Shown here one piece after another: positions 39,666-52,846 of a stretch of 64,000 nucleotides of DNA; position 1 is the first letter of the stretch, and each line of letters begins with the position of its first letter. The notes under the pieces are model-generated. The model was not told the origin of the DNA and did not search any database. It saw nothing but the letters and a program-made list of their open reading frames with translations. This DNA comes from Candidatus Woesearchaeota archaeon (lineage in GTDB: Archaea; Nanobdellota; Nanobdellia; SCGC-AAA011-G17; PNOQ01): the NCBI GenBank assembly GCA_043812195.1, contig JBDRML010000045.1, forward strand, positions 972 through 64,971, in the 5' to 3' direction. A program made the position numbers and the translations under genes.

Positions 39666-40607
39666 ATGAAACCAATTATCTGGAGTCCAAGCAGAATCTC
39701 ATTAGCATCTCAATGCCTTAAAGCATATTTTTACAATTACCTCTCAAAAGAAAAATTCCCAACAAATGGAGAATTTGCAGCAGGGGTTCTATTACATAGA
39801 AAAATGGAAAAATTCTACAAAGAAGACAGAACCCCAAAATACAAATCCCCAGAATCATTCGCAAACGCATCTATGGCTCAATGGCAAAGATTTAATATTA
39901 ATACAGGAAAAAGCAGAGGGCAACCAATAAGATGGAGAAGTGAGAATCACCCATATATACTAAAACATATGATAGGAGAAGCTTGTAAAACAGTATACCC
40001 AGCATATGCTAATCAACAACCACCAATAGAAACAGAGTTTTCATTTGAGTTTTGTTTTGGCAATAGATTTTACAGAGGAAGTATAGATGAAATAAGAAAT
40101 AATGCAACTATAAGAGATCATAAATCAGACGGATTTGAAAGACCACAGACCTCACTAGATAATGATATTCAATTCACTAATTATGCCTTAGCAATATCTC
40201 AATATCTTTACGCAGATAAAAAACTTAGGAAAAAAGTTAATATATCAAAAGAATTAAAAGAAGAAATAAAAAATAAAGAAAAAATTATCTTACCAATAGG
40301 TATAGAAATCCATTATTTAAGAACAGGTAATATAAAAACAACAACAAGAAATGACTCACATTATTATGAACTAACAGAGATAATAGATGAACTAGAAGAA
40401 CAAATAAGAAGAAGAAATTTCAAAAGAAACCTTGGTAAACATTGTGACTTCTGTCTTTTCAATGAAGCTTGTGCAAGAGATACAAAACAATCAAATATTA
40501 CAATCCCCGAAAACCCACAATTACAATTATTTGCAACTTCAGAACCAAAACCAAAAAATATCAAGCAATTAAGATTATCATTTCCAAGAAAATCAAAAAA
40601 AGTGTAG
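39666..40607 (+). CDS. PD-(D/E)XK nuclease of the Cas4/RecB family (stand-alone)
   Basis: SPSRISLASQCLKAYFYNYL N-terminus and a C-terminal Cys cluster GKHCDFCLFNEAC. Its stop codon lies inside the left 14-bp direct repeat. Confidence 0.6.
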   Translation: MKPIIWSPSRISLASQCLKAYFYNYLSKEKFPTNGEFAAGVLLHRKMEKFYKEDRTPKYKSPESFANASMAQWQRFNINTGKSRGQPIRWRSENHPYILKHMIGEACKTVYPAYANQQPPIETEFSFEFCFGNRFYRGSIDEIRNNATIRDHKSDGFERPQTSLDNDIQFTNYALAISQYLYADKKLRKKVNISKELKEEIKNKEKIILPIGIEIHYLRTGNIKTTTRNDSHYYELTEIIDELEEQIRRRNFKRNLGKHCDFCLFNEACARDTKQSNITIPENPQLQLFATSEPKPKNIKQLRLSFPRKSKKV

Positions 40608-40616
40608 GCAAGTGTA
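40603..40616. repeat. Left 14-bp direct repeat GTAGGCAAGTGTAA (partial copy of the rnpB 3' end); putative attL
   Basis: Identical 14-mer occurs at 52548..52561, where it forms the 3' end of the RNase P RNA gene. Confidence 0.65.
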
Positions 40617-40705
40617 ACCTCTAAAGTAGTTTATACTTCTTTTGTATATTATAGTAATTTAGTTAATTATATAAATATTTCTGTTAGTATTAAAAGGGGT
40701 TAGAA

Positions 40706-41521
40706 ATGATAAAATGGATAATTGCTGTGATTATTGCACTTCTTGTAGTTAGTTATATTGTTTCCCCAGAACAAAGATTTGAGATAGAACGATTTTTTAA
40801 GAATTTAGGTGAAGATATAAAAAATGTGAAAATAGATACGCCAATAGTTTCAAGCTGTGAAAAAAATGCTATAGAAATGACCCCAAAATATTGGCTTACC
40901 CATGACTCAAATGCTTACTGGGGATATTATTCACGTGCTGGTGATTGGGGCTATGGAAATTTTCCAACCCCATATAATATTGTTTTCCCGCATCTTAATA
41001 AATGGAATGATGGAAACATCATTAGGCTAAATTTAGATGATTATACAAGAGCTGGTTTTGGAAGTGGGGAGAATATAAACTATAGATATTATAATGATAA
41101 AGATAATTTAGAGTATAGTAAAGATATTATTGATAAAAACGGATTAGTTTTAGGGACTAATCATTTTGGAATTAGCCCAGTTTTTAAAGTTAATGATAAT
41201 TTTGAAAGCCCAACCTATACGTGGTGGGAAGATACTGAACTTTCAATCTTACATTTTAATTATTCAGGATTTAACAAAAATATTAAAAAGATGTTAGATA
41301 CTGACAAGTTTGAAATAATTGTTAAATGCGACAAAATAGGACGAGAAGAAGAAATTTGCAGAGAAGAATTTAGTCAAGAAGAGGGAGATTTTGATTGTGA
41401 TTATAGTTCCTACGATAATTGTATAAGTATTTTTTCTGAAACAGAACCAGATATATTTAACAATTTAGTTTATGAAATTATAGAATATAATATTAAAAAT
41501 TGTGAATGGGTAAAACAATGA
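40706..41521 (+). CDS. Membrane-anchored hypothetical protein (element-borne)
   Basis: N-terminal TM helix; W/Y/G-rich extracellular domain. Confidence 0.45.
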   Translation: MIKWIIAVIIALLVVSYIVSPEQRFEIERFFKNLGEDIKNVKIDTPIVSSCEKNAIEMTPKYWLTHDSNAYWGYYSRAGDWGYGNFPTPYNIVFPHLNKWNDGNIIRLNLDDYTRAGFGSGENINYRYYNDKDNLEYSKDIIDKNGLVLGTNHFGISPVFKVNDNFESPTYTWWEDTELSILHFNYSGFNKNIKKMLDTDKFEIIVKCDKIGREEEICREEFSQEEGDFDCDYSSYDNCISIFSETEPDIFNNLVYEIIEYNIKNCEWVKQ

Positions 41522-41682
41522 AAGGAAAAATAGAACTAACAAGGAAAATACAAAGAATAGGTAACTCTCTTTGTGTAGTCTTACCTAAACAAATTGCACA
41601 ATTAAAAGGATGGAAACCTAAGGATTCGGTTTCTATTGTTTTGAATGAAAGGGGTGAATTGATTATAAGGGAAGTGAAATAG
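41518..41682 (+). CDS. AbrB/MazE (SpoVT-AbrB) family DNA-binding protein, 54 aa
   Basis: Hand-translated as MKGKIELTRKIQRIGNSLCVVLPKQIAQLKGWKPKDSVSIVLNERGELIIREVK. The GNSLxVxLPK swapped-hairpin motif is present, and the start overlaps the upstream stop (ATGA). Confidence 0.6.
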   Translation: MKGKIELTRKIQRIGNSLCVVLPKQIAQLKGWKPKDSVSIVLNERGELIIREVK

Positions 41683-41712
41683 ATGGAAAAACATAGAAAT
41701 TGCATGGGTTAG

Positions 41713-50696: not shown

Positions 50697-51035
50697 ATGG
50701 AAAAAAAGAAGCTGAAAAATTATGGAATAGACAGCACACCAATAGATATAGATGAAAAAACATGGGCTATCTTTGACTTATGTTCCAAAGAAAAAAATAT
50801 ATATCAGATTTCTAAAGAAATTGGACTTGCTTATAAAAACACGATGGCAAGGCTAAAATCTTATGAAAAAAAGGGATGGTTGAAAAAACATCAAATTCAA
50901 ACTGAAAGAACGCAAACCATCTATAAGTTAACTCCAAAGGGGATATCATTTTATAAATTAGTAAAAGATATCTTTACAAAAACAACAGACGAAACAGGAA
51001 GAAAGATTGACATAAAAAAGATTAGAATAAATTAG
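50697..51035 (+). CDS. Winged-helix transcriptional regulator
   Basis: IYQISKEIGLAYKNTMARLKSYEKKGWL is wHTH-like. Confidence 0.5.
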   Translation: MEKKKLKNYGIDSTPIDIDEKTWAIFDLCSKEKNIYQISKEIGLAYKNTMARLKSYEKKGWLKKHQIQTERTQTIYKLTPKGISFYKLVKDIFTKTTDETGRKIDIKKIRIN

Positions 51036-51282
51036 TTCGTAATATATAGCGGTAAACAACATATTTAGTGCCATACTAAAATAGATTTATAAAGAATAGA
51101 ATCTTTCAATTTTTATGAAAAAAAAATATTTGAAAATTATGAATATCCTAATTCCTAAAAATAAAAAAAGAAAAATATCAGAGCCAGATTATAAAAGTGA
51201 AAATTTTTCAGTATGGATTAAATAATCTTTAATTATTAACATCATCCATCCTTCTAAACATCCCATTCTTCTTACTATAACT

Positions 51283-52482
51283 TCAACTAATTTTATTCAT
51301 AATCTCTTTTAACCTTTCAGATTTTACTTCTTTCATTAACAATTCAACAAAAGACTTAATCTGGCTTTCTGATTCCTTAAATTCCATAGCTCCTTTGTAA
51401 TCTAAGGGTCTTCCACACTTACTACAAAACTTATTAGTTGCAGAATTTTCATAACCACAAACAGCACAGGTTTTAGGTTTGGTTTTATCTCCATTCTGTT
51501 TTTCATTGATTAATTTACCTGCTTTCTCCAATTGCTTTCTATCAACATCAGCTCCAGATAAATGAATATAAACTTTAGGCATTTGGCTATCTGCACTCCA
51601 ACCAGCTATGATCCTTAATTCTGCTTCAGTAAAACCATCCCCTGCTAAATGTGTTAATCTACTATGTCTTAACAAATGTGGATATATTTTCTTGTTAAGT
51701 TTAGAATTTTTGGCATATTTATTTAGAATAGTATGCAGACCATTAAAACCAAGTCCCATATCCAAATGAGAACCTATATTAGTCCATAAAGGAGCTTCTG
51801 GATCATTCTTGCTTGGATGTTGGTTTAACCAACTAGTTAAATCTGGCACAGAATCTAACAACCTAATTCTCCTACTGCCTGTCTTTCCAGAAACAACAAC
51901 CACAGCTCCATATTCATCTAAAGCAACATTCTTTAATCTTACATTTAGCCATTCACCACTCCTACAACCACTCTCATATAAAGTAAATACCAATGCCTTA
52001 TCTCTAAAGTTATCTGCACAGCCAACTAGCTTTAATATATCCTCTTTAGTAAAAATATCATCTGGCACTTTAAACTTCTTATTTCTTTTTATCTTAATAT
52101 CTTCAACAACTTCTGACTTACCTATTCTCTTAAAAAAAGTTTTAATTGATAGTTTTATTTGTTCTATTGTTTGTTTGGAATACATACCTTTTCTCTTAAA
52201 TCTCTTACTTTGAACATTATATCCATTCTCCAATAAGTCTATTATAAAATCATCTACAGCCTTTTTTGTTAATTGATCTACTTCCTTCCCTGTGTTTCTA
52301 AATAACATAGATAAATTCTTTATGTTAATGCTTCTTGAATGAGCAGATAACCCATTTTTTAATAAAGTCCTATTGTATTCTAACATAGTTTTTCTTTGCT
52401 TTTCTGTTAGTCTATCATCTTCTATTTGTTTTTTGATTCTGTTCTCTTTATTTCTAATGTCTTTATCTCTGGCAATTTCCAT
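51283..52482 (-). CDS. Tyrosine recombinase / integrase with C-terminal zinc ribbon
   Basis: Catalytic region HLLRHSRLTHLA...KVYIHL (R..H..Y) and C-terminal CAVCGYEN...CSKCGRPL. Confidence 0.85.
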   Translation of the reverse strand: MEIARDKDIRNKENRIKKQIEDDRLTEKQRKTMLEYNRTLLKNGLSAHSRSINIKNLSMLFRNTGKEVDQLTKKAVDDFIIDLLENGYNVQSKRFKRKGMYSKQTIEQIKLSIKTFFKRIGKSEVVEDIKIKRNKKFKVPDDIFTKEDILKLVGCADNFRDKALVFTLYESGCRSGEWLNVRLKNVALDEYGAVVVVSGKTGSRRIRLLDSVPDLTSWLNQHPSKNDPEAPLWTNIGSHLDMGLGFNGLHTILNKYAKNSKLNKKIYPHLLRHSRLTHLAGDGFTEAELRIIAGWSADSQMPKVYIHLSGADVDRKQLEKAGKLINEKQNGDKTKPKTCAVCGYENSATNKFCSKCGRPLDYKGAMEFKESESQIKSFVELLMKEVKSERLKEIMNKIS

Positions 52483-52547
52483 TTATTTTCTCCCAACACT
52501 ATCCCCTTTATAAAGGATGTATTACGAAGTATAAACTAATTAGAAAA

Positions 52548-52846
52548 GTAGGCAAGTGTAAGCCACATTCTGTTAGGTTTCCACCAAAGATGGACAAACC
52601 ATCCTGACATTCAACTAAGCGTCTCAAAAGACTTGCACCAGTCGGGTCCACCGTTTCATCGTTCCCTTATATCTACTCAACTAGTTAACTCACTTCTGTT
52701 GCCAAAAGCTTCATAGCCTCATTGTTAAACAATATAAGGACGTGCCGTTTCTGTGCGGTTGCCTCCCATTTCTGAGACTTAATAAGCGACCGTTTTATGG
52801 TGTGTGGACTTTCCTCCCTTTGACAGGTTAGTCAGGCACTTACCTA
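52548..52846 (-). ncRNA. rnpB: RNase P RNA (reduced, ~300 nt)
   Basis: The minus strand contains GGGAGGAAAGTCCAC (CR-I/P4 hallmark) near the 5' end and ACAGAATGTGGCTTAC (CR-V ACAGAAnnnGGCTTA) near the 3' end. The terminal P1 helix pairs GTAGGTAAGTGCC with GGCTTACACTTGCCTAC, and the gene is GC-rich. Confidence 0.75.

Follow-up and report, generated by a model that had tools for sequence, protein, structure and literature searches.

A probable site-specific integrative element in the RNase P RNA gene of a Woesearchaeota archaeon

Here we describe an insertion of 11,944 bp at the 3′ end of rnpB, the gene for RNase P RNA, in a Candidatus Woesearchaeota archaeon, a member of the DPANN archaea. The insertion lies in a 64,000-nucleotide stretch of GenBank assembly GCA_043812195.1 (contig JBDRML010000045.1, positions 972 to 64,971 of the forward strand), hereafter the window, which has a G+C content of ~30% and contains an archaeal 16S-tRNA(Ala)-23S operon. 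We put the probability that the inserted DNA is a site-specific integrative element, be it an integrated plasmid or a provirus, at about 93%. All four types of attachment site were recovered, attP only from a related element, and in addition the boundaries are exact, the target gene is intact and so is the integrase gene.

The element is delimited by a direct repeat of 14 bp, GTAGGCAAGTGTAA on the plus strand, which is present as two exact copies in the window, at 40604-40617 and 52548-52561. A third copy of GTAGGCAAGTGTAA was not found in the window even with up to two mismatches, and no exact copy arose in 100 dinucleotide-preserving shuffles. The left copy forms the core of attL and the right copy the core of attR. 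Between them lie 11,930 bp of element-specific DNA (40618-52547), and the excised circle, consisting of this body and one copy of the core, would measure 11,944 bp. The original prediction, made from the letters of the sequence, had proposed an integrative element of ~11.9 kb bounded by a 14-bp repeat that occurs exactly twice and does not recur. The size, the copy number and the right-hand coordinates were correct, whereas the left copy had been placed one base too early, at 40603-40616.

The right-hand copy belongs to a gene on the minus strand (52548-52847) that matches the archaeal RNase P RNA family (Rfam RF00373, RNaseP_arch) over the whole model (1-288) with a score of 148.1 bits, well above the gathering score of 84. 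As the match ends at 52548, this copy of GTAGGCAAGTGTAA constitutes the last 14 nt of the RNase P RNA. In the cmscan alignment the RNA ends in ...CAGAAUGUGGCUUACA-CUUGCCUAC compared to ...CAGAAGGgGGcUUAcuCCccgCaccC in the family consensus, showing that the repeat begins in the conserved UUAC of the GGCUUAC motif and covers the entire 3′ strand of the P1 helix. P1 closes in the minimum-free-energy fold, with the first 11 nt of the RNA pairing with the last 11 nt. Both the identity of the gene and the position of the repeat in P1, at the 3′ end of an RNase P RNA on the minus strand, had been anticipated and are borne out by the covariance model.

The left-hand copy overlaps the end of a host gene on the plus strand (39666-40607), which encodes a 313-amino acid nuclease of the PD-(D/E)XK type (Pfam PF12705, PDDEXK_1, E = 8e-20). 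The TAG stop codon of this gene (40605-40607) falls within the core, in agreement with the earlier proposal that the repeat supplies it. The description of the protein as Cas4-like holds no further than the level of the superfamily, with PF12705 being the only assignment and no match to a Cas4 family in Pfam or to any family in NCBIfam; the cysteine motifs of the translated protein are consistent with nothing narrower than the Cas4/AddB-like superfamily.

If the element had inserted precisely, an empty site with a single copy of the core should exist in related genomes, as the original prediction had suggested. A 29-mer across the predicted empty junction matched one JGI contig (Ga0180009_10005373, 13,752 bp, here L008), and empty sites were found in three independent metagenome assemblies, JGI 3300015370 (L008 and L113), ENA ERZ27247117 (L114) and Logan SRR6514730 (L115). 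Positions 1-2745 of L008 align to window positions 37873-40617 at 99.1% identity and positions 2732-6901 to 52548-56717 at 99.7%, and these two alignments overlap by precisely the 14-nt core. L114 and L115 contain the same empty junction, with the flanks joined through a single copy of the core, and the body of the element is precisely missing from all three. The empty-site strain is ~99% identical to the window strain. The window rnpB is 100% identical over 300 nt to that of L114 and L115, and in L008 the gene has the same Rfam score as in the window. Together, the single core copy and the identical rnpB show that the 11,944 bp were inserted precisely and without altering rnpB, and the target gene therefore stays intact after integration.

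In all three empty sites the nuclease gene, identical or 98% identical to that of the window, directly adjoins rnpB. The two genes are convergent and overlap by 4 nt, and the nuclease stop codon lies inside the core there as well. What changes upon integration is the 3′ trailer of rnpB, where the host sequence ACTTTTTTTG is replaced by the element-derived TTTTCTAATT. Each of the two is rich in T, as archaeal terminators are expected to be. The 29-mer gave no match in the GTDB species genomes, and a search for further rnpB 3′ ends through synteny with the nuclease gene returned one more distant homologue (48% identity), which does not adjoin rnpB.

The same site is also used by a second occupant. 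Two contigs, L001 (JGI 3300014656) and L002 (SRR6514274), have a host nuclease gene and a core identical to those of the window, followed by an inner arm that is related to that of the window element yet different (cctttcaaatagtgtatactttt at attL, compared to cctctaaagtagtttatacttct in the window). The site was thus found empty, occupied by the window element and occupied by a related one, and is polymorphic in nature.

Evidence for an attP came from a 7,625-bp Logan contig, L005, which encodes the closest relative of the window integrase that we found (P0002, 79% identity). L005 has an overlap of 30 nt between its ends, and an open reading frame (ORF) of 520 amino acids closes across the junction, which would give a circle of 7,595 bp, and the contig is probably circular. 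The exact 14-mer is located upstream of the integrase gene, in the same place as in the window. One arm of L005 aligns to window positions 52563-51332, comprising the inner arm of attR and the integrase gene, and the other to 40686-40600, the inner arm of attL, with both alignments meeting at the core. Since each arm has its homologue in one inner end of the window element, we assign this site as attP. Its identity to the host attB reaches 20 nt (GCTTACACTTGCCTACACTT, in the orientation of the integrase). At the protein level only the integrase and one 61-amino acid ORF are common to L005 and the window element; being otherwise different, the two are different replicons with one common integration module. 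The attachment sequence is common to at least three elements that are related to one another.

For the window element itself, the junction expected in the excised circle is ...ATTAGAAAA-GTAGGCAAGTGTAA-CCTCTAAAG... The original prediction had proposed looking for the circular form. A related, probably circular element carries an attP with the same core, and the excised form of the exact element was not found. In IMG/VR the 20-mer common to attB and the attP of L005 had no match, and a 17-mer made of the core and the left inner end, which would be expected in attP and attL, gave two chance matches only. Both of these (L003 and L004) were rejected, as the 17-mer lies inside unrelated, GC-richer coding sequence.

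The gene beside attR (51283-52482, minus strand) encodes a tyrosine integrase of 399 amino acids (PF00589 and PF13240; PHROG 1, 'integrase'), with the PF00589 score of 52.5 bits exceeding the cutoff of 27.1 and placing it among the tyrosine recombinases. Arg174, Lys200, His269, Arg272, Trp295 and Tyr305 are invariant in an alignment of 15 relatives, and from the motif (R, K, H-x-x-R, W and Y) we take these to be the catalytic residues. The gene starts 65 nt past the 3′ end of rnpB, is co-oriented with it and reads away from it, the arrangement that had been predicted, and it is intact in the integrated state. The integrase also has a zinc ribbon (CxxC...CxxC, residues 339-356) located after the catalytic tyrosine, the four cysteines of which are invariant in the 15 relatives. 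Several of the relatives carry the JGI label 'integrase/ribosomal protein L40E'.

Further inspection of the attachment sites revealed a perfect 13-bp inverted repeat that the original prediction did not contain. The right arm, GAAGTATAAACTA on the plus strand (52526-52538), and the left arm, GAAGTATAAACTA on the minus strand (40627-40639), each lie exactly 9 bp inside a copy of the core. In the reconstructed attP the two 13-bp arms are 32 bp apart with the core at the centre. L005 contains the equivalent inverted repeat in its attP, with two mismatches, and in addition an inner inverted repeat of 7 nt (TTAGAAG / CTTCTAA) placed one base from either end of the core. These core-flanking repeats probably bind the integrase, making the 13-bp arms candidate integrase-binding sites. 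A 12-bp palindrome read from the sequence, CCTTTATAAAGG (52505-52516), is found ~23 nt upstream of the integrase start codon, and L005 has a counterpart in the same place, TTCTTTATAAAGAA. The palindrome resembles an archaeal TATA box and may also serve as an operator, and we regard it as a candidate for these roles.

Taken together, these observations best support a mechanism in which the tyrosine integrase would recombine attP on the circular element with attB, the last 14 nt of rnpB, through conservative site-specific recombination. The element carries the identical 14 nt, running from the UUAC motif through the 3′ strand of P1, and because of this element-borne copy integration rebuilds an unchanged rnpB at attR. 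The displaced copy of the core at attL in turn retains the stop codon of the convergent nuclease gene. The logic is the same as for integration into tRNA and tmRNA genes, a canonical attP × attB reaction. With the core of attP outside the gene, 65 nt upstream of its start, the integrase remains intact. We infer that the tyrosine integrase, rather than the resolvase that the element also encodes, is the catalyst.

The remaining genes of the element bear on whether it is a plasmid or a virus. A plasmid- or provirus-type gene set had been predicted between the repeats, and this was confirmed with the identification of a primase-helicase, a resolvase, a ParB-like protein, an HNH endonuclease and a winged-helix protein. 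The replication protein of the element is a P4/D5-type primase-helicase of 523 amino acids with a superfamily 3 helicase (48548-50119, minus strand; Pfam DUF5906 and D5_N; PHROG 864 'DNA primase', E = 2e-94), which scores 218 bits against TIGR01613 (primase_Cterm, cutoff 108.7). The resolvase is a small serine recombinase of 201 amino acids (45429-46034, minus strand; PF00239, E = 4e-45, followed by a C-terminal helix-turn-helix (HTH); NCBIfam matches at domain level only), and probably resolves multimers of the free replicon. Next to it is a ParB-HTH-like DNA-binding protein of 147 amino acids (46059-46502, minus strand; PF17762, E = 2e-5). The HNH endonuclease has 184 amino acids (43106-43660, plus strand; PF01844, E = 1.2e-11). 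In the left half of the element are several membrane or secreted proteins without a family match, namely a 271-amino acid protein with an N-terminal hydrophobic segment (40706-41521, plus strand; no Pfam or PHROGs match), a 218-amino acid protein with several hydrophobic segments (44219-44875, plus strand; no family match) and a protein judged to be membrane-bound or secreted from its translation (45100-45432).

The winged-helix protein, 112 amino acids in length (50697-51035, plus strand), has only weak Pfam matches below the curated cutoffs and is encoded convergently with the integrase. A small convergent winged-helix gene also follows the integrase in L005 (5889-6191) and in L006 (2830-3228), a contig with a more distant integrase that is described below. 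The three genes match different Pfam families, all with weak scores. The arrangement looks like a conserved integrase-plus-regulator module, in which the winged-helix protein would be a candidate regulator or directionality factor.

The presence of a resolvase, a ParB-like protein and a primase-helicase, with no virion genes detected, inclines us towards a plasmid-like element. The element may instead be a provirus, namely a temperate DPANN virus whose virion proteins escaped recognition, and we regard this as the less probable of the two identities, though one to be taken seriously. P4/D5-type primase-helicases are common in viruses, the membrane and secreted proteins of the left half could be envelope proteins, and the closest annotated viral integrases are those of the Archaeoglobi pleolipoviruses (32%) and of a Methanomicrobiales tailed virus (37%). 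Against this, Pfam, PHROGs and a tblastn comparison to the pleolipovirus GacPV1 revealed no capsid, terminase, portal or other virion or packaging gene and no homologue of pleolipovirus VP3 or VP4, with the proviso that novel virion proteins are possible. The combination of a resolvase and a ParB-like protein is more typical of plasmids, and no close relative was present in IMG/VR, the best integrase identity there being 32%.

The integrase of the window element is 31.9-36.7% identical to those of GacPV1 and ThalV2, both Archaeoglobi pleolipoviruses, and of vir524, the Methanomicrobiales tailed virus, with alignments that cover 91-98% of the protein for GacPV1 and ThalV2 and 74% for vir524. 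The integrase is all that the window element and GacPV1 have in common, and an identification as a pleolipovirus was rejected, as the integrase was the sole match. In vir524 a tRNA-Leu gene sits beside the integrase gene; the window element differs in its target gene.

Whichever type of replicon it is, the element encodes a second recombinase, and the serine recombinase could in principle catalyse integration in place of the tyrosine integrase. Its gene is present and intact. The protein is of the resolvase/invertase type, however, without the large C-terminal domain of serine integrases, and its gene is located 6.5 kb from attR. Serine integrases typically use a 2-bp crossover, not a long segment of identity. 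L005, in which only the integrase and the 61-amino acid ORF are common with the window element, has the same core but lacks a homologue of the resolvase. We therefore consider integration by the serine recombinase very unlikely.

Even less probable is that the 14-bp repeat represents a target-site duplication made by a transposase or a casposon, with the 13-bp inverted repeats as transposon ends. Inverted repeats are indeed found near both ends of the element, and casposons generate duplications of ~14-15 bp and have terminal inverted repeats. In the window element the inverted repeats are set 9 bp away from the direct repeat and do not abut it, the ORFs scanned contain no Cas1, transposase, capsid or terminase, and the only gene conserved beside the site in both L005 and the window is the tyrosine integrase. 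Moreover, the unintegrated L005 already contains the 14-mer between its arms, and this attP essentially refutes a duplication. That the insertion is not real and stems from a chance repeat or from chimeric assembly might be suspected in a metagenome-assembled genome and in AT-rich DNA where short exact repeats are common, but is similarly improbable given the result of the shuffles, the deletion boundaries, which coincide precisely with the repeat in each of the three independent assemblies, and the independent contigs L001 and L002 that join the same host flank to the end of a related element.

A site-specific integrative element remains the explanation we favour, and a number of points count against it. 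Recombination is deduced from sequence and not from an experiment, and the element does encode the serine recombinase as well. A free circle or attP of the window element itself did not turn up, in a scan that covered IMG/VR and not the metagenome collection. The circularity of L005 is based on the end overlap of an assembly and the closing ORF, not on reads. Finally, the search for the repeat covered the 64-kb window of the host, and the rest of the genome may contain more copies of GTAGGCAAGTGTAA.

How unusual is rnpB as a target? A profile built from the 15 closest integrases identified at least 549 relatives in the GTDB species genomes, of which the closest are only 40-48% identical to the window integrase. 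We analysed the best 80 loci with Rfam (33-48% identical, mostly in DPANN, methanogen, Bathyarchaeia and Archaeoglobi genomes), and in none of these was an RNase P RNA found near the integrase. A co-oriented tRNA gene ends 20-224 nt upstream of the integrase in 14 of the 80, mostly at ~90 nt, and the geometry of rnpB and integrase in the window equals that of tRNA and integrase in these relatives. As this integrase family normally uses tRNA genes, the lineage of the window element would have moved to rnpB. In the window the sole tRNA gene is a tRNA-Ala (61515-61585) within the rRNA operon, and with rnpB as its target the element falls outside the tRNA- and tmRNA-targeting islands of the Islander type.

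One further locus among the 80, from a Pacearchaeota genome (L063, JAFCGA010000006.1), has a 5S rRNA gene in the upstream position. The gene (2739-2854) is co-oriented with a 38%-related integrase (~2881-4008) and ends 26-62 nt upstream of it. A further stable-RNA target other than tRNA may thus be present here, although the 7 kb of this locus contained no convincing direct repeat on the flanks. The exact window integrase had no record in the contig index, and the relatives L104 and L105-L107 yielded no information on rnpB. L105, L106 and L107, assembled from different sequencing runs, have an identical starting base, which lies 245 nt upstream of the gene for a 42%-related integrase. Such a common start suggests an assembly break at a repeat, possibly the attachment site of that element.

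The literature likewise points to an uncommon target. A review of archaeal tyrosine recombinases contains no mention of RNase P or rnpB (PMC8371274). In bacteria, the text of the TIGER paper presents ssrS, the gene for 6S RNA, as a new RNA target, and its supplement lists a single island of 21,286 bp, 'Mav1.21.RNaseP_RNA', in Mycobacterium avium 104 as an undescribed row of a table (PMC7192596). ffs, which encodes 4.5S RNA, was presented as a novel phage attachment site in 2025 (PMC12540744), and a 2026 survey reported that non-coding RNAs account for 13.5% of the RNA targets of proviruses (PMC13626063). Elsewhere in the literature we found rnpB only as a marker or reference gene, including in Streptococcus papers. 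From these cases, non-tRNA stable-RNA genes are a known, minor class of target. As a target, rnpB has been catalogued at least once in bacteria and we found no archaeal case in the literature. The earlier impression that rnpB is unusual in this role is thus upheld by the review, the 80 related loci and the single bacterial supplement entry.

The window element resembles islands, proviruses and plasmids in tRNA and tmRNA genes in that a 3′ segment of a stable RNA is carried and the gene restored (Williams 2002, cited in PMC12540744; the Islander/TIGER resource, PMC7192596). The integrase likewise adjoins the RNA gene at attR, direct repeats flank the insert and the sites are polymorphic, and relatives of the window integrase itself sit just downstream of tRNA genes. 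The difference lies in the target, an RNase P RNA gene, and in the host, a DPANN archaeon. The ssrS islands (PMC7192596), phage phiEf11 in ffs (PMC12540744) and Mav1.21.RNaseP_RNA similarly have a housekeeping non-coding RNA as attB and restore the gene, and the last of these apparently has the same kind of target gene as the window element. All three are bacterial, however, and the bacterial and archaeal RNase P RNAs constitute different Rfam families.

Archaeal integrases are divided into the SSV-type (type I) and the pNOB8-type (type II). The window integrase is not of the SSV-type, because its gene is not split but encodes an intact protein of 399 amino acids with the core 65 nt upstream. 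It corresponds to the pNOB8-type in that attP is located outside the gene and the integrase is intact when integrated, and it is set apart by its conserved C-terminal zinc ribbon.

Two additional contigs, L006 and L007, encode integrases that are 54-56% identical and display an attP configuration, with element genes on either side and the same layout as L005. Their centres (TTACTGCGTGATAG in L006, with GGCTTACTGCGTGATAG as its core, and TTACAGCTGAGTGAG in L007) are placed between inverted repeats of 7-8 nt. These centres are 14-15 nt long and consist of TTAC followed by 10-11 variable nt, the same distance as separates GGCUUAC, the conserved motif of archaeal RNase P, from the RNA's 3′ terminus. 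L006 and L007 may target the rnpB of other hosts. We tentatively propose, while considering it rather unlikely at present, that the window integrase together with P0002-P0004, and perhaps P0005, forms a small Woesearchaeota clade specialised for rnpB.

Several other features of the window deserve mention. A second difference between the strains lies in the interval that separates the 3′ end of the 23S rRNA gene from the thermosome gene, where window positions 56718-57403 correspond to 6902-8880 of L008. The window has one ORF of 214 amino acids here (56769-57413), and L008 and L114 have ~2 kb with three other genes, including one for a TrmB-like regulator. The 23S rRNA gene (57453-61378, minus strand) is ~940 nt longer than the Rfam model and includes both a group I intron (59170-59481, 82.6 bits) and, at a separate position, an ORF of 153 amino acids (57867-58328, minus strand). 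L114 has a LAGLIDADG_1 (PF00961) ORF of 150 amino acids, apparently at the position that matches the 153-amino acid ORF, as placed without an alignment. A gene on the minus strand (53883-55031) encodes a 382-amino acid protein with an N-terminus resembling a signal peptide and the motif YYYGARYYDPSISRFISVDP; its only Pfam match is weak and sub-threshold. By eye, YYYGARYYDPSISRFISVDP looks similar to the RHS/YD-repeat core found ahead of polymorphic toxin domains.

With this element, the RNase P RNA gene joins the short list of stable-RNA attachment sites, alongside tRNA, tmRNA, 6S and 4.5S genes, and judging from the searchable literature it is the first such case in archaea. Our understanding of integration is unchanged, as the mechanism is standard and only the target gene is unusual. 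Island finders that are limited to tRNA and tmRNA genes will miss such elements. The set of sites was obtained without cultivation, as metagenomic data supplied attB, attL and attR for this organism and attP for a related element. The integrase and a short, defined attB/attP pair are candidates for a genetic tool in DPANN hosts, and the polymorphic site provides a convenient strain marker. Characterised mobile elements are few in DPANN archaea. If the proposed rnpB-specialised clade exists, its integrases would anchor on the conserved RNase P motif, with the rest of the core tracking the P1 helix of each host. Together with the 5S-adjacent locus from Pacearchaeota, such a clade would mean that integration into stable-RNA genes other than those for tRNA is recurrent in the DPANN archaea.

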